A DNA stretch of 64,000 nt from Mobula hypostoma (lineage: Eukaryota), in NCBI RefSeq assembly GCF_963921235.1, contig NC_086097.1:169448001-169512000 (forward strand), read 5' to 3'. The notes beneath the pieces were generated by a model. The model had not been told where the DNA came from. It searched no databases and saw nothing but the letters and a program-made list of their open reading frames with translations. A program made the translations under genes and the position numbers. This document shows, one piece after another, positions 2,063 to 53,591 of the stretch (position 1 is the first letter of the stretch; every line of letters begins with the position of its first letter).

Positions 2063-4739
2063 CTTCAAGCATTTGAAAACCATAAAGTTTTCAAACGCAT
2101 CAGCCAAATGCAGGACAAAAAAAAGCCATATTAAGTGGACTACATCAAACTGGGCAACAGTGGCCTAATTATTTTGCCACATCGTTACCAAGTTCAAGGA
2201 AGTTTGTAGACCAGACTGATGTTGTCACTTAGCACAGCAAACATAGTCACAAGCATATGCTTTTTCACTAGTTGGGGTATCTGTGCCCTCAGAGAATCAA
2301 CACTTAACAATAACTTCGGGTGTTCTGGGTTCTCTGTCCTCAGAAACATTTAAATCACACTCAAGGATTAGCTTATCTCATTAAAGGTGTATGAACATTC
2401 AGAACTGTTTCCCCATTGTAGATACACATGTCATTGGAAGCACTGCCCCCCAATACTGATTTATTTAAACAAAGGGTGGAACTTCAATCACAATATAACC
2501 TGTTATTAACTCATCCCATTGAAGGTTACTTGCTTAAGTTAAAGAGCCAATTTTATATGTCTGGAGATAAAAATAATAAACTGCTTGTATCTCAATTAAA
2601 AATGGCTACAGCCAAAAGGCAAATTATGAAAATTCGTAGGAAAGATGGTACCTTAGCTCAGGAATATGAGGAAATTAATAAGATTTTTCAAGACTTTTAT
2701 GCTGAGCTATATAAATCTCAATGTCCGTTAGATTCCTCTAAAATGAATGCTTTTTTATGAAAGATTGTTTTTCCTAAAATCTCAGCTGAGGATCAAAAGA
2801 TTCTTGATGCTCAAATTACTGAAGCCGAAATTCATAAAGCTATTTTTTCAATGCAATCTGTTAAGTCCCCAGGACTTGATGGTTATCCCGTAGAATTTTA
2901 TAAAAAATTTGGAAAGTTGCTCTCTCTGTATATGTTGGAAATGTTTAAGGATTCTTTTGTGAAAGGTGACTTACCCTCTACTTTTTATGAGGCCTCTATT
3001 TCTTTAATTCTTAAAAAAGATAAAGATCCTACTGACTGTGCTTCATATAGACCTATTTCATTACTGAATGTTGACACTAAGATCTTGTCAAAGATAATGG
3101 CCAATCGGTTGGAGAATATTTTGGGTAAAATTATTTGTAAAGATCAAACAGGCTTTCTAAAGGGTCGTTATTCCTTTTCAAATATTCAGAGACTACTTAA
3201 TATTATATATTCATCCTGTTCTAAAATTCCACAATGTGTTGTATCTTTGGATACTGAAAAAGCGTTCGACCGAGTCCAATGGAAATATTTATTCAATGTT
3301 TTAGAGAAATTTGGCTTTGGTGTTAATTTTAATAATTGGATTAAAATGATATATAAAGCCCCTGTTGCTACTGTTGTTACTAACAATTGTAGGTCTCCTT
3401 TTTTTCAGCTTTCACGGGGAACAAGGCAAGGTTGTCCATTAAGTCCTTTGTTGTTTAATTTAATATTAGAACCCCTTGCTATTGCTCTTCGTGAGGCTAA
3501 AAATATCCATGGGATATTTGTGAGTGAGACCATGCATAAGGTCTCTCTTTATGCTGATGATTTATTGGTTTATATATCTAACCCTGACGAATCCATTCCT
3601 GCCCTGTTAAAATTATTTAATGAATTCGGAGGTTTTTCAAGATATAAAATTAATTTTAGTAAAAGTGAATTATTTCCTTTAAATGATTCTGTTTCTATAT
3701 ATGATAATACTCCTTTCAAAGTTTCAGACTCTCTTAGATATTTAGGTATTATAATTACTAAAAAATATAAGGATCTTTATAAAGCTAATTTTGTTCCCTC
3801 AGTAGACTCTATGAAGTATTTATTTAGTAGATGGAGTCCACTTACATTTTCACTTGTTGGTCGTATTCATATAGTTAAAATGATGATTCTACCGAAATTT
3901 TTATATTTATTTCAGAATATTCCTGTTTTTTTGTCTAGGAAGTTTTTTGATCAGATTGATTCTATTATTTTATCTTTTATTTGGAAGAATAAAAGAGCAA
4001 GAATTAGTAAATGTCATTTACAAAAATTGAAAAAGGATGGAGGTCTTGCTTTGCCTAATTTTAGAATGTATTATTGGGCTGTTCATCTGCGATATATGTC
4101 TTTCTGGTTATACTGGGTTGATAAGACTGATCAGCCAATTTGGGTAGATCTGGAACTAAAAGTTGTAAAACAGTTTTATTTAACTTCGTTATTGGGGGCT
4201 CCTTTACCTATGCAATTAGGTAAAGTTGTTAATTTAAACTTATATCCTGTGATTAAGTATTCTTTACAAATTTGGCTCCAATTCCGCAATTCTTTTAATC
4301 TTACAAAATTTAAACTTTGTAGTTTAATTTACCGAAATTACTTTTTTAAGCCTTCTTTGAGTGATCCAATTTTTCTACTTTGGAAAAATAAAGGTATTAA
4401 TTCTTTTTTGGATTTATTTAAAGAAGATAGATTGATGTCCTTTGAACGATTAACTGATAAATATTCTCTTTCATATTCACACTTTTTGCAATACCTTCAA
4501 GTTAGACATTTTTTACAAAAATATTCAAGTAATTTCCCTTACATATTGGAGCCTGACCTGTTAGATACTATCATGAGTATGAATCCTTTGATTAAGGGTT
4601 CTTTTGGAAGAGTTTATAATTTATTATTACAATGGGATAAGTGTCCTTTGTCTAAGATTAAACAGGATTGGGAAAAGGAACACACATCAAAGTTGCTGGC
4701 GAACGCAGCAGGCCAGGCAGCATCTCTAGGAAGTGGTAC

Positions 4740-4775
4740 AGTCGACGTTTCAGGCTGAGACCCTTCGTCAGGACT
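4740..4775 (-). ncRNA. Minimal hammerhead ribozyme motif on the CEP192 sense strand
   Basis: Reverse complement reads AGTC-CTGACGA-AGGGTCTCAGCCT-GAAA-C-GTC-GACT; core intact. Confidence 0.7.
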
Positions 4776-4791
4776 AACTGAAGGAAGAGTT

Positions 4792-4827
4792 AGTCCTGAC
4801 GAAGGGTCTCGGCCTGAAACGTCGACT
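4792..4827 (+). ncRNA. Minimal type I hammerhead ribozyme motif (PLE type)
   Basis: AGTC-CTGACGA-AGGGTCTCGGCCT-GAAA-C-GTC-GACT: stem I AGTC/GACT, intact core, stem II, palindromic ACGT in place of stem III, GUC cleavage triplet. Confidence 0.75.
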
Positions 4828-5749
4828 GTACCTCTTCCTAGAGATGCTGCCTGGCCTGCTGCGTTCGCCAGCAACTTTGATGTGTGTTGCTTGAATTTCC
4901 AGCATCTGCAGAATTCCTGTTGTTTGGGAAAAGGAACTTAATTTGACTTTTATGACGGAGGATTGGATGCGGATATTGAAGTTGGTTAACTCTTCTTCAA
5001 TTTGTGCTAGCCATTCATTGATTCAATTTAAAATTGTACATTGTTATCATTTGACAAAGGAGAGACTTTCTAAAAATTTTTCCTAATGTTGATAGTCATT
5101 GTGATAGATGTAAAACTGAGATAGCTACACTGACACATATGTTTTGGTCTTGTTCTATATTGGAACAGTTCTGGAAGTTGGTTTTCTCAACAATTTCTAA
5201 AGCACTCAAAATTAATTTACAACCTAATAAATTAACTGTGCTTTTTGGAATAGTTCCTCAAAATATTTATGGTATTTTTGTGTCTGACCAACATGTTATT
5301 GCATTTGTTACATTGAGAGTTAGGAGGGCCATTTTGTTGAAGTGGAAGGATACATCAGCTCCCACTTTGCCACAATGGTTCTCTCAAGTGATGCTATGTC
5401 TTAGTTTGGAGAAAATTAGAAGTCGAACCTTTATTTGATTTTGAGAAAAGATGCGGCTCATTTGCTCGTTATTATCATTTGAGTTAATTGATATAATTTT
5501 TCCACGATCTAATTGTAAATTCTTTTAGTATTTTTCTTTTCTTGCTGGTGGTTTGATGTTTATTTTTAGAAGCTTTTTGTATGACGCATGGCTCCGGGGT
5601 TGTACACCTAATGGGTTCTCTTTTATTTTTCCTCACTTTCCTGCTTAGTAGGTTTTTTTTGTTATCACAAAATTTTGTTTTCAATCTTTAAAATGACGGT
5701 TTTTTTTTGAGGCACTGTAAGTGCTGTTACTTCAATGTACTCATGTTTT

Positions 5750-5781
<32 letters not shown>

Positions 5782-11505: not shown

Positions 11506-11965
11506 ACTGATTAATTCAATTGCAAAACTAAAAAGATGTTTGGATATCTACATGGATGGGAGGGGTAGGGTTCAGCTGTGGGTCAATGGGACTAGACAGA
11601 ATAACAGTTGGGTAAAGAATAAATGGGCTGAAGGGCCTGTTTGTGATGTAGTACTCTACGACGAATATCATGCTGGAGCTCAAGATGATCTTTCTCACAA
11701 TGAATGTCATCCTACATTTGCATTCTGGTCTTAACATATATAAAAGAAACACCAAGGGTCCCAGAACCAAATTTTACAGTGCACTTGCGATTACAGATTT
11801 CCAAACAAACAGCAACCCTCCACAGCCATTCTTTATCTCATAGTATCATCTCTAGATCCCACAGCAACTTGTTTTGGATCCCACAAGCTCCAACATTGTG
11901 GATCAGTGCAAGAGCACTGAAAATGGACAACATTCATCACATTGCTCTTAATTTCATTAATACAT

Positions 11966-14655
11966 TGAACACAGAATAGTACAGCACATTACAGACCCTT
12001 CAGCCCACAATGTTGTGCTGACCCTCAAACCCTGCCTCCCATATAACACCCCCACCTTAAATTCCTCCATATACCTGTCTAGTAGTCTCTTAAACTTCAC
12101 GAGTGTATCTGCCTCCACCACTGACTCAGGCAGTGTATTCCACGCACCAACCACTCTCTGAGTAAGAAACCTTCCTCTAATATCCCCCTTGAACTTCCCA
12201 CCCCTTACTTTAAAGCCATGTCCTCTTGTATTGAGCAGCTGTGACCTGGGGAAGAGGCGCTGGCTATCCACTATATCTATTCCTCTTAATATCTTGTATA
12301 CCTCTAGCATGTCTCCTCTCATCCTCCTTCTCTCCAAAGAGTGAAGCCCTAGCTCCCTTAATCTCTGATCATAATCCATACTCTCTAAACCAGGCAGCTT
12401 CCTGGTAAATATTCTCTGTGCCCTTCCTAATTCTTCCACATCCTTCCTATAGTGAGGTGACCAGAAATGGACACAGTACTCCAAGTGCGGCCTAACCAGA
12501 GTTTTATAGAGCTGCATCATTACATCGCAACTCTTAAACTCTATCCCTCGACTTATGAAAGCTAACACTCCATTAGCTTTCTTAACTACCCTATCCACCT
12601 GTGAGGCAACTTTCAGGGATCTGTGGACATGTACCCCGAGATCCCTCTGCTCCTCCACAATATCAAGTATCCTGCCATTTACTTTGTACTCTGCCTTGGA
12701 GTTTGTCCTTCCAAAGTGTACCACCTCACACTTCTCAAGGTTGAACTCCATCTGCCATTTCTCAGCCCACTTCTGCATCCTACCAATGTCTCTCTGCAAC
12801 CTTCGAAAATCCTCTACACTATCTGCAACACCACCAACGTTTGTGTCGTCTGCAAACTTGCCAACCCACCTTTCTACCCCCACATCCAGGTCGTTAATAA
12901 AAATCAAGAAAAGTAGAGGTCCCAGAGCAGATCCTTGTGGGACACCACTAGTCACAATCCTCCAATCTGAATGTACTCCCTCCACCACGACCCTCTGCCT
13001 TCTGCAGCTAAGCCAATTCTGAATCCACCTGGCCAAACTTCCCTGGATCCCATGCCTTCTGATTTTCTGAATAAGCCTACCGTGTGGAACCTTGTCATAT
13101 GCCTTACTAGAATCCATGTAGATCACATCCACTGCACTACCCTCATCTATATGCCTGGTCACCTCCTCAAAGAACTCTATCAGGCTTGTTAGACGATCTG
13201 CCCTTCACAAAGCCATGCTGACTGTCCCTGATCAGACCATGATTCTCTAAATGCCCAGAGATCCTATCTTTAAGCATCTTTTCCAACAGCTTTCCCACCA
13301 CAGACGTTAAGGCTCACTGGTCTATAATTACACAGACTATCCCTACTACCTTTTTTGAACAAGGGGACAACATTCACTTCCCTCCAATCATCTGGTACCA
13401 TTCCCGTGGACAACGAGGACATAAAGATCCTAGCCAGAGGCTCAGAAATCTCTTCCCTCGCCTCGTGGAGCAGCCTGGGGAATACTCCGTCAGGCCCCGG
13501 GGACTTATCCATCCTGATGTATTTTAACAACTCCAACACCTCCTCTCCCTTCATATCAATATGCTCCAGAACATCAACCTCACTCATATTGTCCTCACTA
13601 TCATCAAGTTCCCTCTCATTGGTGAATACCAAAGAGAAGTATTCATTGAGGACCTCGCTCACTTCCACAGCCTCCAGGCACATCTTTCCACCTTTATCTC
13701 TAATCGGTCTTACCTTCACTCCTGTCATCCTTTTGTTCTTCACATAACTGAAGAATGCCTTGGGGTTTTCCTTTACCCTACTCGCCAAGGCCTTCTCATG
13801 CCCCCTTCTTGCTCTTCTCAGCCCCTTCTTAAGCACCTTTCTTGCTTCCCTATATTCCTCAACAGACCCAGCTGATCCTTGCTTCCTAAACCTCATGTAA
13901 GTTGCTTTCTTCAACCTGACTAGATTTTCTACCTCACTTGTTACCCATGGTTCCTTCACCCTACCATTCTTTATCTTCCTCACTGGGACAAATTTATCCC
14001 TAACATCCTGCAAGAGATCTCTGAACATCGACCACATGTCCATAGTACATTTTCCTGCAAAAACATCATCCCAATTCACATCCCCAAGTTCTAGCCTCAT
14101 AGCCTCATAATTTGCCCTTTCCCAATTAAAAATTTTCCTGTCCTCTCTGATTCTATCCTTTTCCATGCTAAAGGCCAGGGAGCGGTGGTCACTGTTCCCC
14201 AGATGCTCACCCACTGAGAGATCTGTGACCTGACCCGGTCATTACTCAGTACTAGATCTAGTATGGCATTCCCCCAGTCGGCCTGTCCACATACTGTGAC
14301 AGGAATCCATCCTGGACACACTTAACAAACTCTGCCCCATCTAAACCCTTGGAACTAATCAGGTACCAATCAATATTAGGGAAGTTAAAGTCACCCATGA
14401 TAACAACCCTGTTATTTTTGCACTTTTCCAAAATCTGCTCCCAATCTGCTCCTCTGTATCTCTGCTGCTACCAGGGGGCCTACAGAATACCCCCAATAGA
14501 GTAACTGCTCCCCTCGTGTTCCTGACTTCCACCCATACTGACTCAAAAGAGGATCCTGCTACATTATCCACCCTTTCTGTAGCTGTAATAGTATCCCTGA
14601 CCAGTAATGCCACCCCTCCTCCCCTTTCTCCCCCTTCTCTATCCCTTTTAAAGAC
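11966..14655 (-). mobile_element. CR1-clade LINE, ORF2 (EN to RT) and 3' tail
   Basis: ORFs with GVPQGSALGP, KFADD, KSPGPDG and GDFNFP motifs; CR1-type 3' end. Confidence 0.92.
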
Positions 14656-15720
14656 CTGACCTTCAACTCATAAGGGAGAACGAGGCAGTCATAGATGAGA
14701 GCTACAGGGAGGTAGTCACACCTAGGCTGTTGGAAGCAAGTCGTTGGGTGACAGTCAGAGGGGGGAAAGCGAAGGTGGGTAGACAGGTAGTGCAGAGCAC
14801 CTCTGTAGCCATTCCCCTGAATAATAAGTTTACCATCCTGGATACCGTTGGCGGGGACAACCGACCAGGTGTGAGCCATGGTGGCAGGGCTCACTGAGTC
14901 TGACTCTGTGGTGCAGAAAAGTGGGACGGAGAAGAGGAGAGCTGTCGTCATTGGAGACTCTATAGTCAGGGGAGCAGACAGGAGATTTTGTGGACCTGAG
15001 AAGGACACCCGCATGGTTTGTTGCCTCCTGGGTGCCAGGGTCTGGGATGCCTCTGACCGGCTGCACAACATCCTGATACGAGAGGGAAAGCAACCAGAAG
15101 TCGTGATACATGTTGGTACCAACGACATAGGCAGGAAGAGGGATGAGGTCCTGAAGTGAGAGTTTCGGGAACTAGGCAGAAGGCTGAAAAACAGGACCTC
15201 AAGGGTGGCGTTCTCAGGATTGCTGCCAGTGCCACGTGACAGTGATGGTAAGAATTGGAGGAGATGGCAGTTGAATGCGTGGCTGAGGAGTTGGTGCAGG
15301 GAGCAGGGTTTTAGATTTTTGGATCATTGGGATCTCTTCTGGGGAAGGTAGGACCTGTACAGACTGGATGGGTTGCACCTGAACTCGAGGGAGAGCCATA
15401 TCCTTGCAGGTAGGTTTGCTAGCATGGTTCGGGACGATTTAAATTAATTTGCAAGGGGGATGGTACCCGGAGCGATAGAGCAGTGAAAGAAGTGCATGGA
15501 GTAAAGCCAGCTCTAACATATAGACAGGCTTTGAGGAAAGAGAAGCAGGATAAAGGGTGTAAAGGTAGGAAGGTAGAAGGGCTAAAGTGTGTGTACCTCA
15601 ATGCAAGAAGCATCAGGAACAAAGGTGAAACTGAGAGCTTGGATGCATACATGGAATTATGATGTAGTGGCCATCGCAGAGACTTGGTTGGCACCAGGGT
15701 AGGAATGGATTCTCAGTATT
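14656..15720 (+). mobile_element. Inverted 5' part of the same CR1 (ORF1 SGNH esterase plus start of ORF2)
   Basis: AVVIGDSIVRG...VIHVGTND esterase motifs, then YLNARSI...ETWLAPG..WILSI, which in CR1 precedes the FKRDRE..GGGVALL start of the minus-strand part. Confidence 0.85.
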
Positions 15721-17049: not shown

Positions 17050-17965
17050 AGGTCAAGGGAAGTCACACAATAGTCTTCATTGAGGGGTCAGCAGTGGAAA
17101 GTGTGAGAAGTTTGAAGTTCCTGGATGCAAACATTGCTGAAGATGCTGGGCCCAACATATTGATGCAATTACAAAGAATAATATATCAGTGACTATATTT
17201 CATTAGGGATTTTGAAGAATATTGCTGAAAATTCTAGCAAATTTCTGAAGATGTACCATGAAGAGTATTCTAACTGGTTGTATCACCATCAGGTATTGAG
17301 GAGCCATTTCACAGGATTGGTAAAAACTGCAGACTCCTAAACTTATGCAGTTCCATTATGGGCACCTGCCTCCCCAGCATCAAGGACATCTTCAAAAGGC
17401 GATGCCTCAAAAAGGCAGCATCCATCATTAAGGACACCCCCCAACCCCCACCCCCATGATCCAGAATATCTTTTCAAGTCCATTATCCCTACTGGGGCAT
17501 AGGCCCAGCTTGCCTTCGTCCTCTACCTGTGGCCAATCTTTTAGTCTTTCAGGATGTAGCCCCTTCTTCCAGTGAGTAGTTCTTTGGAGCTTCTGCTGGC
17601 ACTTCTTTGGTGCTGGGTTTTTAATAAGATAGGGTAGCTAGCCCCACTCCCAACCCTCCTCCTCCTTTTACAGCCAGGCTTGGGACCGTCCACGGCAAAG
17701 TTATCACCCAGGATATGCTTTTCTCTTATTATTACCATCAGAGAGGAGGTAAAGAAGCTTAAGAAATGTACTCAACATTTTAGTAACACTTCTTCTCCTC
17801 TGCCATCAAATTTCTGAATGGACAATGAACCAACCCATGAACAATACCGAACTATTTTTGATTTTTTTGCACTACTTCATTTTTTTTTAAAATGTGTTGC
17901 ACAGTGCTGCTACCTCTAGACAAATTTCACGGCATATTATCAGTGATATTAAACCTGATTCTGAT
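17050..17965 (+). mobile_element. Degraded Rex1/Babar-like LINE 3' fragment with an internal insertion
   Basis: Homologous to the other Rex/Babar fragments (AAGGCAGCATCCATCATTAAGGAC; tail AAACCTGATTCTGAT). Confidence 0.6.
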
Positions 17966-20900
17966 CCCTCTTCAGTCAGAAATTACAGAAGATTGTTTCT
18001 TCTTGTTGTTCTCCAAGGTTATACTTAAGTCAATGATAAATTGTTTTCCACTTCCTGAGCTCAATACATTTACTGTTATGATATACTTGTACATGCACTC
18101 GTGAGCAGATGATTAAAGTTGGTGCACATGTGCCAATGTTTTCATCTGAAATATCTGTCTCGAAACATGGTGGCAGCGGTGAGGCTCGGAAAATTGCCTT
18201 TTTCAACCGCAGCGCCCGATTTTTTCAACTTGCAGTTGACAGCATAATAATAGCTCAACTCTGAAACATCGGAGGGTGAGTGTAAGAGTAGAAAATTGTC
18301 GACCGAGACAAGCAACCAGCCACCAGCCACAAATAGAGATGGGTGCAGTAGCAATACCTGGAGGTGAGACAGCAGAATCTCAGCGGCACCCAACACCCGC
18401 AGGCGATCCCATGCTGGGGAACCATGGTCGGGGCAAAAGTCCTCCCCCAGTCAGCGGCATCTGCCCGCCACCAACTGTGACAGTCAACCGCGGGGTGATA
18501 GACGGATGGAAGACATAGCGGCAGATGTGGACTAACTACAGTGTTGTAGCACAACTGCACAAACAGGTTCCAGCGTACTTGATGGCATTATTTTTACATA
18601 CAATTGGACCGTCAGGACTTGAGGTCTACAACAGTTCTGTGTTTGCAGATGAGGCTGAAGGCCAAGAAGACCTCAAAGATTTTAGCTGCATTTGACAGAT
18701 ATGCTATCGGTGAGAAAAATGAGACATATGAACTGTACTTGTTCAACAAGCGGCAACAAGAACAAGGTGAGACCTTTCAATCGTTTCTTGCCAACCTTAG
18801 ATCTCTTGCAAAGACGTCATTTTTGCTCGTGTATGTCAGTCTGCTGAGAGACAAGATCATACTGGGCATTAATGACTCCCAAACCAAAAAACGTGTTACA
18901 AGAGAGAAAGCAATTGCTCAATGACTGCATTGACATTTGTAAAAGCACAGAAATAGCTGAAGCATTCAGTACAGCTGCAGATAGCAGTTCCGCTACTGTC
19001 CATGGGATTAAACCTCACACTAACAAGAAAGGTCCAAAGCATCCTGGACAGAAGGCTAGTGCTAGTGGTGGAGCCAGAGCAAGAGGCACCTTGAACAGCC
19101 ACAGAAGCAAAGTGAACCCTTGCAAGTACTGTGGCATGGAACATGCAAGAGACGAGCAACAATGCCCAGCATACAGACAGGTGTGCAAGGCGTGTGGCAT
19201 TCGAAATCACTTTGCAAAGGTGTGCAAGCAGAAGCCCGGGCATGGGGTGGAAGCACAAAGCAATGACCAAACCGACAGTGACAGCAGCACCGAGTTTATC
19301 AACAATGTCACACTGCTGGTCAGCAGCTTGAAGACAAAGGATGACGTATTTGCACAGATGCTCATCAATGGAAAGCCAACAGACTTCCAAGCCGACAGCG
19401 GGGCGAGCAGTAACATTTTATCCCGCAAATACTTGGAGGGAGTAGACCACTCACTAAGACAATGCACAAAAAAGCTGATGATATGGAACAAGACCACCAT
19501 GGATGCAGTAGGGATGTGTAGAGTGAAACTGCGTAACCCCATGACGAACCGCAAGTATTCTGTCGAATTTGTCATGGTCGCTGACGACTTTACACCATTG
19601 CCAGCCAGCAAATGAATCTGATTACAGTCAACGATGACAACTTTCGCAGGGTGCATGCATCTACACTTAAAGAAAAACAATGCACACCAGCAGAACGCTA
19701 TGCAGAGGTGTTCGATGATACGCTCGGGGAGCTTCCGGATGCAGCCCACCTGCAGATTGATGAGGAAGTTCAACCTACAGTGTTACCCCCATGATGTCTA
19801 CCTCACGCTATGAAGCGGGAAGTGAAAGCTGAGCTCGATCAACTGGTAGACCGCAAGGTGATAGCTCCAGTCCATGAACCTACAAGGTGGGTTAGCCAGT
19901 TAGTAGTCGCAGAGAACAAGAACGGCAGTCTTCATATATGCATCGACCCTTGACCATTGAACAAAGCGCTGAGGAGAGAACACTACCCCCTTCTGGTGAT
20001 AGAGGACATTTTGCCAGATCTTGACCAGGCTAAGGTTTTCAGCAAGCTTGACAGGAGTTCTGCATTCTGGCAAGTGAAATTGGACAGTGAATCGAGCGTG
20101 CTCACCACTTTCAACACACCTTTCGGGCAGTATAGATGGCTCAGACTCCTGTTTGGAACCAGCGTTTCATCAGTGATCTTCCAGCGCAGGCTGCATCAGG
20201 CGCTGGAAGGACTACCAGGAGTGATCTACGTCACAGACGGCATTCTGGTGTACGAAAAAGGGGAAACACAGGAAAAGGCAATCGCCGATCAGGATGTGAA
20301 ACTTGAGCAGCTATTACAGCGTTGTATATCAGGCTCAACAAGAATAAATCTGTCTTCAGAGGGACAGAGGTACCCTTTTTGGGGCATCTCATCACAAGTG
20401 AGGGACTTCAGCCTGATCCTAAAAAGGTCGCTGACGTTCTCAACATGCCAGCACCCACGGATGTGCAGGGAGTGCAGTGATTGATCGGATTTGTCAACTA
20501 CCTGAGCCGTTTTCTACCAAGTCTCTCAGATACCCTTGAGCCAATAAGACAGCTGACAAAGCCAGATGTAGCATGGGAGTGGTCAGCTGAGCAGCAAAAC
20601 GCTCTCTCAAGATCAAGCAGATGGTATCCGAAGCACCGGTGTTAGCATACTACAATTCTAAGGAAAAGCTAACCATCCAATGTGACGCCAGCAACCAAGG
20701 CCTAGGGGCAGCACTCCTCCAGAATGGATGTCCGATCGCATATGCAAGCAGAGCGCTAACGGACACAGAAACGCATTACGCAGTGACCGAAAAGCCAATG
20801 CTCGCAATCATTTTCGCACTTGAGCGTTTTCATCAATACACTTTTGGCCACTTCACAAGAGTACTCAGTGATCACAAGCCGCTCGAAATGATAGTTAAGA

Positions 20901-22101: not shown

Positions 22102-22400
22102 TGCACATCAAAGTTGCTGGTGAACGCAGCAAGCCAGGCAGCATCTCCAGGAGGAGGTACAGTTGACGTTTTGGGCCGAGACCCTTCGTCCTCCCCCTCC
22201 TGTCTTCTCCTATCATTTTGGGTCTCCCCCTCCCCCTTTCAAATCTCTTACTAGCTCTTCTTTCAGTTAGTCCTGACGAAGGGTCTCGGCCCGAAACGTC
22301 GACTGTACCTCTTCCTAGAGATGCTGCCCGGCCTGCTGTGTTCACCAGCAACTTTGATGTGTGTTGCTTGAATTTCCAGCATCTGCAGATTTCCTCGTGT
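22102..22400 (+). mobile_element. PLE fold-back element #2, inserted in the Gypsy integrase
   Basis: Inverted arms. TSD TTGGGAGAAA(A/G)CAA at 22088-22101 and 22401-22414. Confidence 0.88.
22269..22304 (+). ncRNA. Minimal hammerhead ribozyme motif
   Basis: AGTC-CTGACGA-AGGGTCTCGGCCC-GAAA-C-GTC-GACT, intact. Confidence 0.72.
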
Positions 22401-22991: not shown

Positions 22992-23188
22992 AGCAGGCCA
23001 GGCAGCATCACTAGGAAGAGGTGCAGTCGACGTTTCAGGCCGAGAACCTTCGTCAGGCCCTGATGAAGGGTCTCGGCCTGAAACGTCGACTGCACCGCTT
23101 CCTAGCGATGCTGCCTGGCCTGCTGCGTTCACCAGCAACTTTTATGTGTGTTGCTTGAATTTCCAGCATCTGCAGAATTTCGGTTGTT
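22992..23188 (+). mobile_element. PLE fold-back element #3, inserted in the Gypsy 3' region
   Basis: Near-perfect hairpin with almost no loop. TSD TGGTATGTATTTGT at 22978-22991 and 23189-23202. Confidence 0.88.
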
Positions 23189-34300: not shown

Positions 34301-36340
34301 ATCCTCTGGGTTCCCCCCCCCCTTCTCCCTGGGCCTCTTGTTCCATGATCCTCTCATATCCCTTTTGCCAATCACCTGTCCAGCTCTTGGCTCCATCCCT
34401 CCCCCTCCTGTCTTCTCCTATCATTTTGGATCTCCCCCTCCCCCTCCCAAATCTCTTGCTAGCTCTTCCTCCAGTTAGTCCTGATGAAGGGTCTCGGCCC
34501 AAAACGTCGACTGTACCTCTTCCTAGAGATGCTGCCTGGCCTGCTGCGTTCACCAGCAACTTTGATGTGTGTTGCTTGAATTTCCAGCATCTGCAGAATT
34601 CCTCGCGTTTACGTTTTTACTATCCACATTGATATTGTTTGCTAGCTTGCTTTCATATTTCATCTTTTCCCTCCTAACAAGTCTTCTAGTTGCTCTCTGT
34701 AGGGTTTTAAAGCTTTCCAATTCTTTGTCTTCCCACTAATTTGTGCTTTGTTGTATGCCCTTTCTTTTGCTTTTACATTAGCTTTGACTTCCCTTGTCAG
34801 CCATGGTTTTACTATTTTGCCATTGAGTATTTCTTTGTTTTTGGAATACAACTATCCTGCATCTTCCCCGTTTTTTCCCCAGGAACTCATGCTATTGCTG
34901 CTCTGTTGACATCCCTGCCAGCATCTCCTTCCAATTTACTTCAGCCAACTCCTCTCTCCTACCGATGTAATTTCCTTTACTCTACTGAAATACTGATACG
35001 TCAGACTTTACTTTCTCCATACCAAATTTCAAGTTAAACTCAGTCATATTGTGATCACTGTCTCCTAAGGGTTCTTTTAAGTTAAGATCCCTTATTACTT
35101 CCGATTCATTACAGAACACTCAATCCAGTATAGTTAATCCTCTAGTAGGCTCAATGACAAACTGCTCTAAAAAACCATTTTGTAGGCATTCAAAAAACTC
35201 ACTCTCGAGTTCCATTTCCAAACTAACTTTCCAAATTGACCTGCATGTTAAAATCTCCCATGACTATCATAACATTGTCCTTTTGACATGCCTTTTCTAT
35301 TTCCTATTGTAATCTGTGGTGCACATCCTAGCTACTGTTGGGAGGCCTGTAGATAACTGTCATTTTACCTTTGACGTTTCTTGACTCAGCCCACAAGGAT
35401 TCAACATCTTCTGATCCTATGTCACATCTTTCTTCTGATTTGATGTCATTCTTTACCAGCAGAGAGCAATGCCACCCTCTCTGCCTACCTTCCAATCCCT
35501 CCGATACAACATATAACCTCGGACATTCAGTTCCTAACTACAACCATTCTTCAGCCATGATTCAGTAATGACCACAACATCATACTGGACAATCTGTAAT
35601 AGTGCAACAATATCAGCCACCTTTATTTCATGTACTCCATGCATTGAGATATATCACAGAGTACCGTATTTGCTATCCTTTTTGATTCTGCATCCCTCAT
35701 GCACTGACACTCACCCTGCTGGCTGCAATTATATCCCGTCATCTGCCTGCCATTCCTGACAGTCTGACTGCACGCCATCTTTGCTTACCATCCGTCCTAT
35801 CTGGAGTCTCTTCACTACGGTTCCCACCCCCCTGCCAAATTAGTTTAAACCCTCCACAACAACTCTAAGAAACCTGCTGCGAGAATATTGGTTCCCCTTG
35901 TATTCAAGTGCCACCCACCACTTTTGAACAGGTCATACCTTCCCCCAGAAAAGTTCCCAATGATCCAAGAATCTGAAGCCCTGCCCCCTGCACCAGTTTC
36001 TCAGGCACACATTAGTTTGCCCAATCGTCCTGTTCCTACCCTCACAGGCACATGGCACAGGCAGCAATCCCAGAAATTACTACCCAGGAGGTCCTGCTTC
36101 TCAGCTTTCTACCTAGCTCTCTAAATTCTCTTTTCAGCACCCTTGTTGTTTCTGTATCCCCAATGCACTGATACTCACCCTGCTTTCTGCAATTATGTCC
36201 GACCATCTGCCTGCCCTTCCTGACAGTCTGCACGTTATCTTTGCTTTTTTACCATCTGTCCTATCCCGAGTCCCTTCACTCCGGTTCCTACCCTCTGCCA
36301 ACCCTCCCCAACAGCTCTAACAAACCTGCCAGCAAGAATA
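31336..36340 (-). mobile_element. Degraded near-full-length CR1 LINE, interrupted by PLE #4
   Basis: RT motifs GVPQGSVLG and MSPGPDE, EN and ORF1 remnants. 36160-36340 repeats 35700-35890. Confidence 0.85.
33143..34614. mobile_element. PLE fold-back element #4, long form with GIY-YIG endonuclease fragments on both arms
   Basis: ORF 33544-33870(-) TCESAGVIYCIRCSRCGLLYIGETRRRLGDGFAEH...PVATHFN (GIY-YIG), mirrored on + at about 33957-34190. TSD TTTTACTATCCAC(T/A)TTGA at 33125-33142 and 34615-34632. Confidence 0.92.
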
Positions 36341-39724: not shown

Positions 39725-42700
39725 CAGTGATTCCCAACGGGGGCGGTTACATGTCTTAAGGGGACGTTAGGAGTCGTCATGGGGGGAGGGAGGGGGGCGT
39801 TCAAGATTCTTGGGGGTGGGCGGCAGTAAGCAGCACCCTATCTTGAGGCACGAAACCTGATCAACTGTTAGTAGAGCAGGCACATCCAAAAAAAAAAGGA
39901 TGAGGCAGTGGAACACAGGAAGAACCATAGCTCTGCAGGTGGTGAGCACTCATCACAACATGCCTGAAACTCAGCAATCTCATCCAACCTTACCAACCAA
40001 ACAGACATTTTTGGGGATGCACAGATTAGCAATCAGGATGCCCAATCCCCTTGACTCACAGCGCAGAATGACCTCATGCAATTTAACCCCCTCAACTTTC
40101 TGTGCAGTTCTACAGAAAACAGATCATGTAATGATACAGCGCTAGCTGAAACCAAACAGTGAAATACAATTTATCAGTGAACCTGCCGACCCCAAGGATC
40201 CCTCGAGATGTTCAAAGCAACCTCAGCTTCTTATATAAAGTCAAGAACTATTTTTGGGGATTGAGACCTTACATGATTGGTCAATCGTGCTAAATGGAAT
40301 AGTATAAAAGTAGCCTGCCGAACACCAGCTCTAAAAAGGATCTAAAAAGCGTGGATTGGGACAGGTTGTTCTCTGGCAAAGATGTCATTGGTTGGTGGGA
40401 AGCCTTCAAAGGGGAAATTTTGAGAGTGCAGAGTTTGTATGTTCCTGTCAGGATTAAAGGCAAATTGAATAGAAATAAGGAACCTTGGTTCTCAAGGGAT
40501 ATTGCAACTCTGATAAAGAAGATGAGGGAGTTGTATGAAATATATAGGAAACAGGGGGTAAATCAGGTGCTTGAGGAGTATAAAAAGTGCAAGAAAATAC
40601 TTAAGAAAGAAATCAGGAGGGCTAAAAGAAGACATGAGGTTGCCTTGGCAGTCAAAGTGAAGGATAATCCAAAGAGCTTTTACAAGTATATTAAGAGCAA
40701 AAGGATTGTAAGGGATAAAATTGGTCCTCTTAAAGATCAGAGTGGTCGGCTTTGTGCGGAACCAAAGGAAATGGGGGAGATCTTAAATAGGTTTTTTGCG
40801 TCTGTATTTACTAAGGAAGCTGGCATGAAATCTATGGAATTGAGGGAATCAAGTAGTGAGACCATGGAAACTGTACAGATTAAAAAGGAGGTGGTGCTTG
40901 CTGTCTTGAGGAAAATTAAAGTGGATAAATCCCCGGGACCTGACAGAGTGTTCCCTCAGACCTTGAAGGAGACTAGTGTTGAAATTGCAGGGGCCCTGGC
41001 AGAAATATTTAAAATGTCACTGTCGACGGGTGAAGTGCCGGAGGATTGGAGAGTGGCTCATGTTGTTCCGTTGTTTAAAAAAGGATCGAAAAGTAATCCG
41101 GGAAATTACAGGCCGGTGAGTTTAACGTCAGTAGTAGGTAAGTTATTGGAGGGAGTACTAAGAGACAGAATCTACAAGCATTTGGATAGACAGGGGCTTA
41201 TTAGGGAGAGTCAACATGGCTTTGTGCGTGATAGGTCATGTTTGACCAATCTGTTGGGAGTTTTTCGAGGAGGTTACCAGGAAAGTGGATGAAGGGAAGG
41301 CAGTGGATATTGTCTACATGGACTTCAGTAAGGCCTTTGACAAGGACCTGCATGGGAGGTTAGTTAGGAAAATTCAGTCGCTAGGTATGCATGGAGAGGT
41401 GGTAAATTGGATTGGACATTGGCTCAATGGAAGAAGCCAGAGAGTGGTGGTAGAAAATTGCTTTTCTGAGTGGAGGCCTGTGTCTAGTGGTGTGCCACAG
41501 GGATCAGTGCTGGGTCCATTGTTATTTGTCATCTATATCAATGATCTGGATGATAATGTGGTAAATTGGATCAGCAAGTTTGCTGATGATACAAAGATTG
41601 GAGGTGTAGTAGACAGTGAGGAAGATTTTCAGAGCCTGCAGAGGGATTTAGACCAGCTGGAAAAATGGGCTGAAAAATGGCAGATGGAGTTTAATACTGA
41701 CAAGTGTGAGGTATTGCACGTTGGAAGGACAAACCAACGTAGAACATACAGGGTTAATGGTAAGGCACTGAGGAGTGCAGTGGAACAGAGGGATCTGGGA
41801 ATACAGATACAAAATTCCCTAAAAGTGTCGTCACAGGTAGATAGGGTCGTAAAGAGAGCTTTTGGTACATTGGCCTTTATTCATCGAAGTATTGAGTATA
41901 AGAGCTGGAATGTTATGATGAGGTTGTATAAGGCATTGGTGAGGCCGAATCTGGAGTATTGTGTTCAGTTTTGGTCACCAAATTACAGGAAGGATATAAA
42001 TAAGGTTGAAAGAGTGCAGAGAAGGTTTACAAGGATGTTACCGGGACTTGAGAAACTCAGTTACAGAGAAAGGTTGAATAGGTTAGGACTTTATTCCCTG
42101 GAGCGTAGAAGAATGAGGGGAGATTTGATAGAGGTATATAAAATTATGATGGGTATAGACAGAGTGAATGCAAGCAGGCTTTTTCCACTGAGGCAAGGGG
42201 AGAAAAAAACCAGAGGACATGGGTTAAGGGTGAGAGGGGAAAAGTTTAAAGGGAACATTAGGAGGGGTTTCTTCACACAGAGAGTGGTGGGAGTATGGAA
42301 TGAGCTGCCAGACGAGGTGGTAAATGCGGGTTCTTTTTTAACATTTAAGAATAAATTGGACAGATACATGGATGGGAGGTGTACGGAAGGATATGGTCCG
42401 TGTGCAGGTCAGTGGGACTAGGCAGAAAATGGTTCGGCACAGCCAAGAAGGGCCAAAAGGCCTGTTTCTGTGCTGTAGTTTCTATGGTTCTATCCCGACA
42501 AACATTCAGATTCCAATCCTTGTCAACATAATTTTACCTGTTGATATCATCACCTTGTCATTCCTTTGCGTGCCGCCACCATCAATCTATTTGAGTCAAC
42601 TTGCTGCCGTCATCAGCATCCGATAGGCATTCCCTGTTTTCCCCCCGGTGTTAATTTTTTATTTTACTTTAGCCCCGTTGATGACAGGGCTAAAGTAAAA

Positions 42701-44741
42701 TACAGTACAATCTCTATGAGTCTGAAGGCGACGAAGCCCTGAATTATAATCCTGCTAAGCAATAGAAACGACAGAAAATGCGTCAATACAATGTTACATA
42801 CCTGTATAGTTCTATTCCGTTCCCATCAGATCAACGACACCCTATGTCTTATTTGTAATACTGTACTGTCTAGAGAAGCCATGAAACCATCAAGATTGCA
42901 GCAACACTCCCATAAAAGACACCCTGAAAAGGCGACTTATGGTATTACTCAGTTTCAGAAGATGAAAGAAGCATTTGAAAAGTGTTGCACACTCGAGTCA
43001 TTTGCCAAGAAAGCTAAAAATGACCTTGATCATGGTCTCACTGCTTCTTATAACATTTCCAAAATGATAGCAAAGTGTGGAAACTCTCATACAATTGGTG
43101 AAAGATTAATAATGCTTGCTGTGTCAGAAGTGCTCACTACCATTCTCAAAATAGATACCAGTATTTTAAAATAAATTCCTCCGAGTGGTAACTCTGTAGC
43201 TTGTCACATTGACGGAATGAGTGAAGACATTGAACATCAACTACGCACAGAGCTACAAAAACCAGAATTTGGGATTCAACTGGATGAGTCAACTATGCGA
43301 GACAACGAGGCACTGCTAATGGCGTATGTATGGTTTATCAAAAATGGAAACGTTTTTGAAGAGATTCTTTTTTGTAAAAAGTTAAAAACAAATATCAGAG
43401 AACCAATCTACGAGCTCAAAATGTATATTGAGAATAAAAGTATTCCGATTAGAAACACGATTTCCTGTGCAACAAATGGTGCACCATACATGACAGGACG
43501 TCATGCTAGTATAGTGGCATTTATGAAAAAGAAATTCTAAGTCTGTTTGCAATCCATTGTGTAATTCATCAACATCTCGCAACGAAAAACATCAGCCAAC
43601 GACTTTTTTCAAACATGACTTTTGTAATATCTGCTTTCAACAAAATTAAAGCTCATCCATTAAATAGCAGACTATTTCTCCAGTTGTGCCAAGATAATGA
43701 GAGTTTGAATGCTTGCTTCTTCACACTAAAGTGCAATGGCTGTCATAAGGCTGTTGCATAAAACATTTCTTCCACCTTTTTGACACACTGGTTGAATTTC
43801 TGCACAGTCAACAAGATCTTGGGAAACACATTTGAACTTCTGTGTGGAGATGTGGCATACCACACCGATCTGTATGACAAAATGAACATTCTAAATATGA
43901 AACTGCATGGTGAGAATTTCAATTTAATCCAGGCAAAAAGTGCAATGTCCACTTTTATTGGAAAATTGTAAATGTTTCAGCAAAATATTGGAAGAAGAAT
44001 GTTCAGTTTCCCTGCATGGAAAGTGTGGCACTCTCTTTCACAGACATTGATTTGGTAAGAGTATTGCTTACACCTGCAGTCACTGAAGAAGGATTTTCAG
44101 AATCGATTCAAGGATTTGAACGATCTGGAAATTCCGGACTGGGTAATTAACTCATTTCTTTGCAAAATGGGAGAACAGGTAGAGAGCTTGCAAGAAGAAA
44201 TTATCGAAATTCAGAATGATGAAGCAGCAAAATTGCTTTTTAAAAATATTGGCTTTTGTGGTACATGGCTACACTGTCGTACAAAGTTTCCTGGTCTTTG
44301 AAGAGCCAAACTGCTCTTCATTGCATTTCCATCCTCCTACCTTTTTGAAAGAGGCTTCAGTGCAGTGAACCACATACTCACAAAAATACAGAAACCACTT
44401 GGACACTGTTACCCGTGGGGACCAAAGACTTTTGCTGTCACAACTTGAACCAGATATTTCAACTCTTGATAAAAACCAACAAGCTCAAGGATCACATTGA
44501 TATAGAAGCTGCTGTACAGCATACAGATACTGTGTAAGCTAGATTTAAAGTCAAATGAAAATTTAAAGCAGAATCATTTTTCTCATGTTTGCATATGGTC
44601 ATCATGTTTTTACACTATAGGGACACTGGAAAGTACATTGTGCCTAAGAGAGACACTGACAAGTATGAAGGACCTTTATGGGGCGTTGTCTAGTATGAAA
44701 GTTTCTGATGGGGTGTTGGGTTTAAAGGTTGGGAAACACTG
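39725..44741 (+). mobile_element. hAT (Charlie/Buster-like) DNA transposon with transposase pseudogene (about 42715-44500) and a nested CR1
   Basis: TIRs CAGTGATTCCCAAC / GTTGGGAAACACTG. Degenerate 8-bp TSD TTTTATAC / GTTTACAC. BED-like CLICNTVL..EAMKPSRLQQH, SHTIGERLI, FGIQLDEST and ATNGAPYMTG motifs. Confidence 0.88.
40333..42492 (+). mobile_element. Relatively young 5'-truncated CR1 LINE
   Basis: ORF2 open apart from one frameshift near 41260 (313 + 378 aa). GVPQGSVLGP and KFADDTK motifs; tail TTCTATGGTTCTAT. Confidence 0.94.
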
Positions 44742-45728: not shown

Positions 45729-47482
45729 ACAAAAAAAAATCTACTGATGCTGTAAATCCAAGCAACACACAAAATGCTAGAGGAACTCAGCAGGCCAGAC
45801 AGCATCTATGGAAAAAGGGTAGAGTCAACGTTTTAGGCCGAGACCCTTCATCAGGACTGGACAAAGAAAGATGATGAGTTAGAATTAGAAGGTGGGGGAG
45901 GGGAGGAAGAAACACAAGGTGATAGGTGAAACTGGGGGGATGGTGGTGTGAAATAAAGAGCTGTGGTTAATAGGTTAAAGAAATACAGGGCTGGAGAAGG
46001 GGGAATCTGACAGGAGAGGCTCGAGTCCATGGAAGAAAAGGGGGAGAGCACCAAAGGGAAGTGATGGGCAAGTAAGGAGATAATCTTTCCATCATCTCCA
46101 ATGGGATTCCACCACAAAGCACATCTTTCCTCCCTCCCAACCCTTACCCCCACCCCCAATTTTCTGATTTCCATAGAGATCGTTCCCTATGCGACTCCCT
46201 TGCCCATCTTCCCTCACTGATCTCCCTTCTGGCACTTATCCTTGCAACTGATGTTAATCCATGGCCTTCTCGACGGTCATAATGAGGCCACACTTAGGTT
46301 GGAGAAGCAACACCTTATGTTCTGTCTGGGTAGCAACTAAGCTGATGGCATGAATATTGATTTCTCAAACTTCCGATAATGCTCCCCCACCTCCCTTCAC
46401 CATTTCCCAACCCCGTTCCCTCAATGTCACAAAAACAAAGGAGCTGGTTGTGGACTACATGAGGAATGGAGACAGGCGAGCCCCTATAGACATTAATGGA
46501 TCTGGGGTTGAGAGGGTGAACAGCTTGAAGTTCCTCAGCCTACATATCACCAAGGAGCTCACGTAGTCTGTACATACTCGCTGTGTGGTGAAAAAGGCAC
46601 AACAGTGCTTCTTTCACATCAGACGGTTGAAGAAGTTTAGTGTGAGCCCCAAATCCTAAGAACTTTCTATAGGGACACAAATGAGAGCATCCTGATTGCC
46701 TGCATCACTCAACTGTACTTCCCTCAATCACAGGACTCGGCAGAGAGTGGTGCAGACAGCCCAGCACATCTGTAGGTGTGAACTTCCCACTATTCAGGGC
46801 ATTTACAAAGACAGGCATGTAAAAAGGGTCCGAAAGATCATTCTGGACTCAAGTCACCCCAACCACAAACTGCTCCTTCTGCTACCATCCGGGAAATGCT
46901 ACTGTAGCATAAAAGCCAGGACCAACAGGCTCCGGGACAGCTTCTTCCACCAGGTCAACAGACTGCTTAACTCATGCTGACACAACTGTATTTTTGTGTT
47001 ACTTTGACTAACCTGTTGTACATACTACTTATTATAAATTACTATAACTTGCACATTGCACGTTCAGACGAAGACACAACGCAAAGAGTTTTACTCCTCG
47101 TGTATATGAAGAATGTAAGTAATAAAGTCAATTCAATTCACTCTCACTCACCTCATCTCCTTACCTGCCCATCACCTCCCTCTGGTGCTCCTTCCCTTTT
47201 TCTTTCTTCCATGGCCCTCTGTCCTCTCCTGGCAGATTCCCCCTTCTCCAGCCCTGTATCTCTTTCACCTATCAACTTCCCAGCATTTTACCTCACCCCT
47301 GCCCCCTCCCAGTTTTACCTATTACTTTGTGTTTCTTCCACCCCTCCCCCCACCTTCTTACTATGACACCTCATCTTTTTTCCTCCAGTCCTGATGAAGG
47401 GTCTCTGCCCGAAATGTTAACTATACTCTTCCATAGATGATGCCTGGCCTGCTGAGTTCCTCCAGCATTTTGTATGAGTTGC
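45729..47482 (-). mobile_element. Older PLE fold-back element #7, interrupted by a LINE
   Basis: Diverged inverted arms. TSD CTGCATGT(A/C)TCAA at 45716-45728 and 47483-47495. GIY-YIG C-terminal remnant near 46250-46375. Confidence 0.8.
46411..47140 (+). mobile_element. Rex1/Babar-like LINE 3' fragment nested in PLE #7
   Basis: SLNVTKTKELVVDY...VERVNSLKFL and RTNRLRDSFF motifs; tail AATAAAGTCAATTCAATTCA. Confidence 0.82.
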
Positions 47483-51272: not shown

Positions 51273-51868
51273 TACGTTAGGGGCATTTGATCATAACCTG
51301 AAAACAAAAATAGTAATGATAAACATACTCACAAAAAGTTTGATTTGTGTAAGTCAACTCAGTTTAGCATTTGTTTCAAAATAACATCAAAAGTTCAGTT
51401 CTTTTTAATCCAGAAATTGATAATGTAAAAATTAAATTGAAGAAAATAAATTTATCCCATTAAAAATAAAAACCCAGGAAATTATGTTCAGCAAGTGAGG
51501 CAGCATCTTTGAAGAGATAAAACATAACCTGCATTCAAAAATGACAAAAATTAGGGAAAATCTTTTGCACATCTCGATGGTTACTGTAAGGGGTTTTTTT
51601 TTGGATAAAGACACCAAAAACTACACATGCTACTTCAAAAAGATTCAAGATCGAACTTTGATGTGTGTTGCAAGATCGTTTATTGTCATTTCCACTGCAC
51701 AAGTGTAAAGGAGAAAAAAATTATTTTACTCAGCCCTGCTGCAGCACAAAAAACATGGTAAGATAAAGAATACAATAATTTTTAAAAAGCCACAATAAAT
51801 ATAAATACATAAGATTGCTTAAACATAGATTAATTATATGCCTAGAAAGTGAAAATAGGCAGAGGAGA

Positions 51869-52076
51869 ACAACAGGAATTCTGCAGATGCTGGAAATTCA
51901 AGCAACACACATCAAAGTTGCTGGTGAATGCAGCAGGCCAGGCAGCATCTCTAGGAAGAGGTGCAGTCGACGTTTCAGGCCGAGACCCTTCGTCAGGACT
52001 CGTCCTGAAACGTCGACTGCACTTCTTCCTAGAGATGCTGCCTGGCCTGCTGCGTTCACCAGCAACTTTGATGTGT
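51869..52076 (-). mobile_element. PLE fold-back element #5, inside a LINE remnant (about 51645-52440)
   Basis: Inverted arms. TSD ATAGGCAGAGGAGA at 51855-51868 and 52077-52090. Confidence 0.9.
51965..52000 (-). ncRNA. Minimal hammerhead ribozyme motif on the CEP192 sense strand
   Basis: Reverse complement reads AGTC-CTGACGA-AGGGTCTCGGCCT-GAAA-C-GTC-GACT, intact. Confidence 0.72.
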
Positions 52077-52706
52077 ATAGGCAGAGGAGAGTTTGTGCAC
52101 AAGGTAACTGACAGGAAATGATAAAGTAGTGGTGGTTCATGGTGTGGAAGGGCGAGTTAGTGGCTGGAGGTGCAGATCAGCTTTACTGCTTGGGGAAAAG
52201 TAACTGTTTTTGAGTCTGCTGATCCTGGTGTGAATGCTTTGTAGCCTCCTCTCTGATGAAGATAGGACAAACCATCCATGAGCAGGATGAGTGGGATCCT
52301 TCAAAATATTTCTGACCTTTTTCCATCACCTTTCTGTATATGTCTTTTGATGGCAGGTAGGCTGGTGCTGGTGATGTGTTCAGCAGTTTCTCCTTTGAGG
52401 CACTCGTGAGCTTTCGCGATTGGATGTGTAGAATCATGATTGTGCAAAAAGAGCCTCATGAAAGCCCTACATATAGAAGATTCCCACATTATAGCAGTTC
52501 ACGTAATAGAAGTTCAATCTCATGAAATTTACACCACCAAAAAAATTCTCACCAGATGTCTTAAATTCAGTTCATTGCAGTTTCTCAGCTGGTGGTAAGG
52601 GTTCAACAATTTGCATTTTTGAACTAATTCAGATTCTAATGAAAACATTCTTTACAATTTGCATGTAAAAAGGTTTTAACTCTATTCAAGACCAACAAAA
52701 CATTTA

Positions 52707-53591
52707 AAAACGCAAACACGAGAAAATCTGCAGATGCTGGAAATTCAAGTAACACACACAAAATGCAGGTGGAATGTAGCAGGCCAGGCAGCATCTATCA
52801 GAAGAAGTACAGTCGACATTTCGGGCCAAAACACTTTGTCAGGACTAACAGAAAGAAGAGATAGTAAGAGATTGGAAGGTGGGAGGGGGAGATCTGAAAT
52901 GATAGGAGAAGACAGGAGGGGGAGGGATGAAACTTAGAGCTGGAAAGGTGATTGGCAAAAGGAATACAGAGCTGGGAGACCATTTTGCTGAACACCTACA
53001 CTCCGTCCGCCTGAGAAAGCAGGATCTCCCAGTCGCCACACATTTTAATTCCACATCCCACTCCCATTCCGACATGTCAATCCATGGCCTCCTCCACTGT
53101 CAAGATAAACACCCACTCAGGTTGGAGGAACAACACCTCATATTCCGTCTGGGTAGCCTCCAACCTGATGGCATGAACATTGATTTCTCTAACTTCCGCT
53201 AATGCCCCATCTCCCCTTCTTATCCCATCTCTTATTTATTTTTATTTTCCCTTTTTCTTCTCTCTCTCTGTCCCTCTCACAATCACTCCTTGTCTGCTCT
53301 CCGTCTTCCCCTGGGCTCCCCTCTCCCTTTCTTTCACCCTCGGCCTCCCGTCCCATGATCCTCCCCTTTTTCCAGCTCTGTATCCCTTTTGCCAATCAAC
53401 TTTCCAGCTCTTAGCTTCATCCCTCCCCCTCCTGTCTTCTCCTATCATTTTGGATCTCCCCCTCCCAAATCTCTTACAACTTCTTCTTTCAGTTAGTCCT
53501 GACGAAGGGTCTTGGCCTGAAACATCGACTGTACTTCTTCCTATAGATGCTGCCTGGCCTGTTGTGTTCCACCAGCATTTTGTGTGTGTTG
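52707..53591 (-). mobile_element. PLE fold-back element #6 with GIY-YIG C-terminal fragment
   Basis: LGDHFAEHLHSV...PVATHFN...LEEQHLIFRLGSLQPDGMNIDFSNF. Inverted arms. TSD CAA(C/T)AAAACATTTA at 52693-52706 and 53592-53605. Confidence 0.88.

Follow-up and report, generated by a model that had tools for sequence, protein, structure and literature searches.

Head-to-head insertions from a Penelope-like element with a minimal hammerhead motif in the genome of the ray Mobula hypostoma

The window analysed here, a stretch of 64,000 nucleotides of the Mobula hypostoma genome (contig NC_086097.1, forward strand, positions 169,448,001 to 169,512,000), holds seven insertions that are almost certainly 5'-truncated copies from the end of one Penelope-like element (PLE), probably of Neptune type. 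Every one of them consists of two outward-pointing arms, and beyond these 14 the window yielded no further terminal arms of the family. Counted in sampled loci of the genome, such arm pairs follow simple rules: one arm with a long and one with a short outer end, coupled arm lengths, and a target duplication of mostly 13-15 bp. We propose, with moderate confidence, that in a single event the nicked ends of both target strands served as primers for reverse transcription of one RNA.

The window insertions and their parent element

A first-pass annotation, made from the letters of the window, had described seven insertions each enclosed by a 13-18 bp duplication. Their coordinates proved to be off by 1-3 bp at most, and the duplications were recovered at every insertion, three of them exact (elements 1, 3, and 6) and four with one mismatch (Table 1). 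Only 3 of 150 pairs of swapped flanks reached the threshold of the duplication score, as against 63 of 83 real pairs. Inverted arms made of the same terminal sequence are indeed present in all seven insertions, but the complete 36-nt hammerhead motif that had been attributed to them is found in only 4 of the 14 arms (both arms of element 1, the right arm of element 2 and the left arm of element 6), the others being truncated or mutated. The long copies carry GIY-YIG endonuclease fragments, as had been noticed, in elements 4 and 7 and in decayed form in element 5, the PF01541 match to element 4 (E = 0.0085) lying below the Pfam cut-off. Arms of elements 1-4 and 6 match an intact parent copy at 89-97%, while elements 5 and 7 represent older subfamilies with 69-82% identity to the reference copy. 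Element 5 owes part of its length to an unrelated insert of ~0.7 kb (~46420-47140) whose translation resembles the reverse transcriptase (RT) end of a long interspersed nuclear element (LINE), and for which a Pfam search returned no match.

The endonuclease fragment of element 4, used as a query, led to loci where the fragment continues into an RT. Among the 101 scored places listed from the protein search, six had open frames of 1020-1054 codons, and three intact copies (L280-L282), 98.8-99.1% identical to one another, carry a 1043-codon frame with RT and GIY-YIG domains between two motif-bearing pseudo-long terminal repeats (pLTRs) spaced 3512-3515 bp apart. The link to a PLE open reading frame (ORF), on which the first reading had been staked beforehand, was therefore found. 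The 1043-codon frame contains the DKG motif, the RT core, a CX4CxxC linker at residue 910 and GIY-YIG/CCHH motifs, with the DKG motif and the CCHH motif of the endonuclease at residues 447, 950, 974, and 989. Pfam matches to RVT_1 and GIY-YIG on family fragments were weak and below the curated cut-offs, and 178 longer homologues were recovered, most with RT-type domains. The natural reference copy L093, from whose predicted ribozyme cut all positions (+/-) are counted, is laid out as inverted pLTR, direct pLTR, frameshifted ORF and second pLTR; the partial-tandem pLTR is present in L093 and in L280-L282, with upstream copies of variable length and motifs 3512-3548 bp apart. Four loci of full-length type (L202, L203, L218, L225) all step back internally from near +984 to near +777, and seem to represent a variant with 200 bp duplicated.

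A CX2-5CxxC, zinc-finger-like linker between RT and endonuclease is described for Neptune and Nematis, and as absent from Penelope and Poseidon, in the account of Craig et al. (2021, PMC8557442). The CX4CxxC linker of the ray frame thus points to Neptune or Nematis rather than to Penelope/Poseidon. As vertebrate PLEs with such a linker are, to our understanding, Neptune elements, the parent would be of Neptune type on the basis of its linker and of this presumed vertebrate distribution.

Abundance in the genome

The window is set in a genome of 3.48 Gb, which was sampled at random with 132 ten-kb stretches taken at round coordinates on 17 large contigs (1.32 Mb in total). Before counting, we dropped 12-13 loci that were redundant with the window or with other loci, four pairs with an arm reading on into the ORF and 3 of 58 young arms lying at stretch edges, which left 55 young random arms. 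The family covered 4.9% of the sampled DNA, with 177 terminal arms, 58 of them young. The sample held 147 insertion events, and the density of about one per 9 kb put forward for the window therefore stands as a genome-wide rate of all insertions of this PLE family, but not for inverted pairs, which were detected in 30 of the 147 events, i.e., one per 44 kb. The window is accordingly enriched in inverted pairs (7 observed vs. 1.45 expected, P ~8e-4, with the reservation that old pairs can escape detection). That the lineage is abundant and recently active, as was surmised at first, agrees with 46,540 exact genome copies of a 28-mer spanning the hammerhead motif and with the near identity of the intact 1043-codon copies (98.8-99.1%).

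Arm ends, pairing and junctions

Measured against exact duplications, the outer ends of the arms were bimodal, falling at +96 to +111 (33 of 41 at +100 to +105) or at +42 to +71 (38 of 41 at +60 to +69). The two sites, near +67 and +103, mostly share 0-1 base of microhomology with the target, and one arm of a pair carries a 35-nt tail that its partner does not have. Each of the 75 pairs bounded by a duplication combines an arm with its end at about +100 to +105 and an arm that stops at +75 or earlier, a one-of-each rule that holds equally for the 27 of 27 pairs from the random sample and the window. Young one-armed copies in the random sample included 11 tailed, 12 tailless and 7 other ends; given this even split, independent choice of ends would give about half mixed pairs. 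The duplications had their mode at 14 bp (28 of 75), with 53 of 75 at 13-15 bp, and were richer in AT than the background (67% vs. 58%).

How far the two arms reach upstream is also coupled. Pairs from the random sample and the window comprised 8 short-short, 6 long-long and 2 mixed cases (Fisher p = 0.009); with the C1 set added the figures became 11, 13, and 3 (p = 7e-5), and for all 53 young pairs, selected loci included, 25, 22, and 6. Which arm reaches further is variable: in 42 pairs it was the tailed arm 18 times and the tailless arm 14 times, the two lying within 10 nt of each other in the remaining 10. Inner starts cluster just upstream of the ribozyme, 15 of the 55 young random arms beginning between -50 and -10 (41 nt) vs. 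4 in the 100 nt upstream, and 5 of the 9 internally deleted copies among 29 loci with the 5' part of the ORF switch at -31 to -40. What we take to be an initiator-like sequence is located at -35. Junctions between arms are often near-symmetric with an overlap of a few bases (gaps of -11 to 0 in 35 of 53 young pairs), and a short inverted repeat at about -38 to -24 yields a recurrent junction type. Only two junction coordinates recurred among 42 young pairs, twice each. Subfamily marker sites were concordant between the two arms in 43, 46, and 44 of 49 pairs (expected 24, 35, and 25), and three long pairs were 98.6-99.1% alike between arms vs. a median near 93%.

Formation of the paired insertions

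Any account of these structures has to start from what was directly observed, namely the parent element, the geometry of the arms, the length of the duplication, the two end points and the coupled arm lengths. In the sequence of events that we propose, the RT/GIY-YIG protein of the element would nick both strands of the target about 14 bp apart, after which one 3' end would prime near +103 and the other near +67, at internal sites such as those used by the PLE of the anole in vitro. Both antisense complementary DNAs (cDNAs) would terminate at one shared point, where the RNA either is broken or has its 5' end just upstream of the hammerhead, at about -30 to -60. Joining of their 3' ends, whether blunt, aided by microhomology of a few bases or achieved by a template jump, and fill-in would complete the insertion. 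Hairpins of 200-300 bp would arise from priming at start sites near the 5' end of the RNA, giving run-off cDNAs of 100-150 nt, and the persistence of one cDNA may leave a one-armed copy, tailed or tailless. The biochemistry of the anole element is consistent with this scheme, as both strands were cut and extended in vitro, two internal start sites bracketed the tail and a dimer was predicted (Frangieh et al., 2024, PMC11167929); the outer ends near +67 and +103 correspond to these two tail-defining RT start sites. The Drosophila Penelope transcript, moreover, starts within the pLTR from an internal promoter (Schostak et al., 2008, PMC2377424). More tentatively, the genome might keep tens of thousands of fossil intermediates of this process, in which each strand necessarily takes its own one of the two start sites on a single RNA, the hairpins are joined, strong-stop-like run-off cDNAs, and the tail, the inverted pLTR and the partial tandem follow from cDNA survival or jumping. 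The literature covered pointed to no two-primer, one-RNA model, with the limit that key older papers and supplements lay outside that coverage and that such a model may be in print.

Several observations weigh against priming of both strands on one RNA. The agreement of subfamily markers is also expected if one subfamily is active at a time, and so leaves the origin of both arms from the same RNA molecule presumptive; in 30 of 32 pairs the partner arm ranked above the median of all arms, but it was the closest of them in only 6. In the in vitro study of the anole element no difference in start site was seen between the strands (PMC11167929), which alone does not give a strict one-of-each rule. 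Exceptions to the rule exist, as L249:457-4135 is a head-to-head pair with a tail at both ends and no target duplication, the sole long/long pair, and 3 short/short pairs occurred among the 16 adjacent pairs that have no duplication support. The pooled pairs, furthermore, came partly from loci picked with a tailed-arm query and with flanks limited to 1.5 kb. Pausing of the RT, or inverted microhomology at the site, might instead have produced the cluster of starts near -30, and in four runs of assembled contigs of uncertain type the cover of the family mirrored the structure of the genomic copies, with no RNA start site visible.

Some of the same features could derive from self-priming or snap-back, hypothesised for rotifer PLEs (Arkhipova et al., 2013, PMC3846280), in which one nascent strand, perhaps made from an antisense template, would fold back on a palindrome and be extended along itself. 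Folding of this kind accounts for the coupled lengths and the marker agreement, and the near-symmetric junctions overlapping by a few bases as well as the recurrent junction type at the inverted repeat are in its favor. A snap-back copy must, however, lie within the first strand, and yet 14 of 42 pairs, elements 1, 4, and 7 among them, have a tailless arm that extends further upstream than the tailed one; since either arm can reach further, plain snap-back is insufficient, and we regard this route as rather unlikely. The use of two RNAs, one for each subunit of a protein dimer and with different start sites imposed by an asymmetric complex, would yield both the one-of-each rule and the variable reach of the arms, and is in keeping with the dimer predicted for the anole protein (PMC11167929). 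It does not predict coupled arm lengths, and no clear cross-subfamily chimera was found; we therefore consider it unlikely. L097, a locus tried as such a chimera, turned out to be a deleted young copy. Inversion after insertion, whether by recombination of neighboring one-armed copies or by repair of a hairpin-capped break, may be exemplified by L249, but 75 pairs have their two arms within a single duplication and obey the one-of-each rule without exception, which makes it very improbable as the general route.

The small products had also been interpreted at first as a ribozyme-bearing family resembling miniature inverted-repeat transposable elements (MITEs), and the short hairpins might accordingly amplify themselves, in a MITE-like or retrozyme-like manner, as a non-autonomous family using its own ribozyme. 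The prevalence of short forms (15 of the 27 duplication-bounded pairs from the random sample and the window are at most 320 bp) and the 75 recurrences of the junction of element 1 would fit such a family. The sizes of duplication-bounded pairs are, however, continuous from 96 bp to about 5 kb, the seven window junctions are all different, that of element 2 being unique in the genome, and 75 junction copies stand against 46,540 copies of the arm 28-mer. The 12 junctions of the element 1 type that were examined (11 others and element 1 itself) had the tail on the right in 7 cases and on the left in 5, with differing subfamily marks; both tail orientations and different subfamily backgrounds indicate that these junctions formed independently, i.e., at a hot spot rather than by descent from one clone. 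The motif itself is incomplete in most window arms and is sequestered in a predicted hairpin. The interpretation of a self-amplifying family was therefore abandoned as extremely improbable, and two-strand priming on one RNA is retained as our working account.

The hammerhead motif

The minimal type I hammerhead motif assigned to the PLE pLTR at first sight was confirmed as a motif, with its core boxes, the bulge at 9.1, stems I and II and a palindrome replacing helix III. In 1.38 Mb our descriptor of this class matched 32 times, each time in family-like sequence, and in three shuffles it matched 0, 0, and 0 times; the intact copies possess two motif-bearing pLTRs. In the covariance-model check suggested at the outset, the Rfam hammerhead models had no match in the window or in the parent pLTR. 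Rfam microRNA matches on two window hairpins, together with other Rfam matches, were below cut-off and were rejected.

Several observations count against a strong ribozyme role. The first pair of stem II is G-U in 32 of 50 young arms and G-C in 15, and the core position A6 is replaced by C in 14 of 81 old arms (among them L034, L055, L058, L074, L101, L103, L115, L158, L166, L168, and L169), which suggests that a lineage with an altered hammerhead core spread. Across 131 arms the pairs of stems I and II were mostly invariant, apart from a one-sided G-C/G-U switch and a remainder resembling CpG decay, and no two-sided covariation was visible in these stems among the 131 arms of this genome. The predicted fold of the monomer is an alternative structure; the RNA of element 1 is predicted to form one long hairpin (-217 kcal/mol) in which the motif stems have a pairing probability of about 0 and the motif would be buried. 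The number of copies starting at the predicted cut is 290, a raw and uncontrolled count; many of the 100 cut-start copies listed are explained by microhomology in stem I or in the core, and in the sampled loci only 2-3 arms begin at -1 to +1. Ribozyme mutants of the anole PLE still insert (PMC11167929), and published minimal hammerheads have low activity even as dimers (PMC4209133). We infer that the hammerhead is a passenger in the two-armed products, its job probably lying in the tandem transcript of the parent, as a dimer or as a protein-assisted ribozyme.

Other features of the window

The insertions lie among remains of other transposable elements (Table 1 gives the coordinates of the family itself). 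Fragments of LINEs with RT domains occur at 2761-4758 (+), which is interrupted by element 1, at 11957-15323 (-), at 40303-42421 (+) and at 58911-62611 (-), the last also with an apurinic/apyrimidinic (AP) endonuclease domain. A broken Gypsy-like LTR retrotransposon with protease, RT, RNase H and integrase spans about 18850-22250 (+), and element 2 sits at the end of its integrase frame. At 17650-17707 (-) a Twister-P1-like match (Rfam, 28 bits, E = 0.078, below the 67-bit cut-off) falls in weakly repeated sequence, matched by two random loci at 72-76%, which may presumably be the 5' end of an RTE-type LINE. A match to the Spin-doc-type zinc finger PF18658 at 42743-43174 (+) (E = 5.6e-05, below cut-off) is possibly a fragment of a hAT-like transposase. 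A separate inverted-repeat element of about 470 bp at 56261-56730, with arms 86-92% complementary and relatives in L083, L101, L130, and L177, has no relation to the PLE and comes closer to a genuine MITE.

Table 1. Coordinates in the window of the seven insertions, their target duplications and the complete minimal hammerhead motifs; signed arm limits are relative to the predicted cut.
Feature	Position	Strand	Description
Element 1	4682-4923		Head-to-head; tailless arm (-) 4682-~4790, to -50; tailed arm (+) 4788-4923, from -35
Element 1, duplication	4668-4681/4924-4937		14 bp, exact
Element 1, complete motif	4792-4827	+	Predicted cut after 4823
Element 1, complete motif of opposite arm	4740-4775	-
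Element 2	22102-22400		Tailless arm (-) to -25, motif incomplete; tailed arm (+) from -122
Element 2, duplication	22088-22101/22401-22414		14 bp, 1 mismatch
Element 2, complete motif	22269-22304	+
Element 3	22992-23188		Both arms from -28, without the 5' strand of stem I; left arm ends at ~+37; right arm tailed
Element 3, duplication	22978-22991/23189-23202		14 bp, exact
Element 4, tailless arm	33143-33955	-	To -742; linker zinc finger, end of GIY-YIG endonuclease, 3' untranslated region (UTR), pLTR end
Element 4, tailed arm	33956-34614	+	From -565; endonuclease end, 3' UTR, pLTR end
Element 4, duplication	33125-33142/34615-34632		18 bp, 1 mismatch
Element 5	45729-47482		Older subfamily; tailed arm (-), tailless arm (+)
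Element 5, duplication	45716-45728/47483-47495		13 bp, 1 mismatch
Element 6	51869-52076		Tailed arm (-) to -31, complete motif 51965-52000; tailless arm (+) from ~-18
Element 6, duplication	51855-51868/52077-52090		14 bp, exact
Element 7	52707-53591		Older, ~80%; tailed arm (-) 52707-52966; tailless arm (+) 52967-53591 with endonuclease end
Element 7, duplication	52693-52706/53592-53605		14 bp, 1 mismatch

Significance and comparison with known systems

For annotation it matters that a single PLE lineage has given rise to about 5% of the genome and that its short products look like MITEs and microRNA hairpins. MITEs are short, non-coding elements with inverted ends and a target duplication, traits that the short window insertions share, and structure-based tools may mislabel them. 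Unlike MITEs, they are retrotransposition products of no uniform size or clonal junction, with unequal ends and a duplication of 13-15 bp; mobilisation by a DNA transposase was rejected, the arms being PLE ends that stop at two RT-type start sites. As in the non-LTR retrozymes described by Li, Clavereau and Pollet (2026, preprint, 10.64898/2026.07.22.740005), the short elements are non-coding, bear the hammerhead and derive from a PLE pLTR. Retrozymes are characterised there by units repeated head to tail, with two or more motifs lying on one strand, whereas the window elements are head-to-head and not clonal; with all seven in this arrangement and no short same-strand tandem among them, retrozyme identity was rejected as well.

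The motif resembles published minimal hammerheads (PMC4209133) in its conserved core, the bulged base before stem II, a stem I of 4 bp and the palindromic ACGU in place of helix III, and pairs of motifs on opposite strands, 100-700 bp apart, are reported from Schistosoma in the same source. It differs from those described there in a stem II of only 4 bp whose first pair is mostly G-U, and in the old lineage with C at A6. With Poseidon PAc of Anolis carolinensis the ray family shares two tail-defining start sites downstream of the hammerhead and AT-rich targets (Frangieh et al., 2024, PMC11167929); the CX4CxxC linker, on the other hand, places it in another clade, and its start sites lie about 67 and 103 nt past the cut.

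No paper on this PLE family in sharks or rays was found in the literature covered. Canonical endonuclease-bearing (EN+) PLEs are described as units with a pLTR, an adjacent inverted and 5'-truncated copy and a tail of 30-40 bp that is often one-ended (Schostak et al., 2008, PMC2377424; Arkhipova et al., 2013, PMC3846280; Craig et al., 2021, PMC8557442), and the formation of their tandem and inverted structures has been stated to be an open question (PMC8557442). The ray family agrees with them in the head-to-head copies within a target duplication, the tail on one arm, the partial tandems and the single RT and GIY-YIG frame. It departs from these accounts, which describe such features in qualitative terms, by its scale (~4.9% of the sampled DNA), by the measured occurrence of one end of each type in 75 of 75 pairs and by arm lengths that are coupled. 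A minimal hammerhead, an inverted 5' copy and a tail on one side have all been published for PLEs before; what a young, very high-copy family with intact frames adds is quantitative rules that can be counted, one long and one short end, coupled lengths and a 14-bp stagger, and that are directly testable in vitro.

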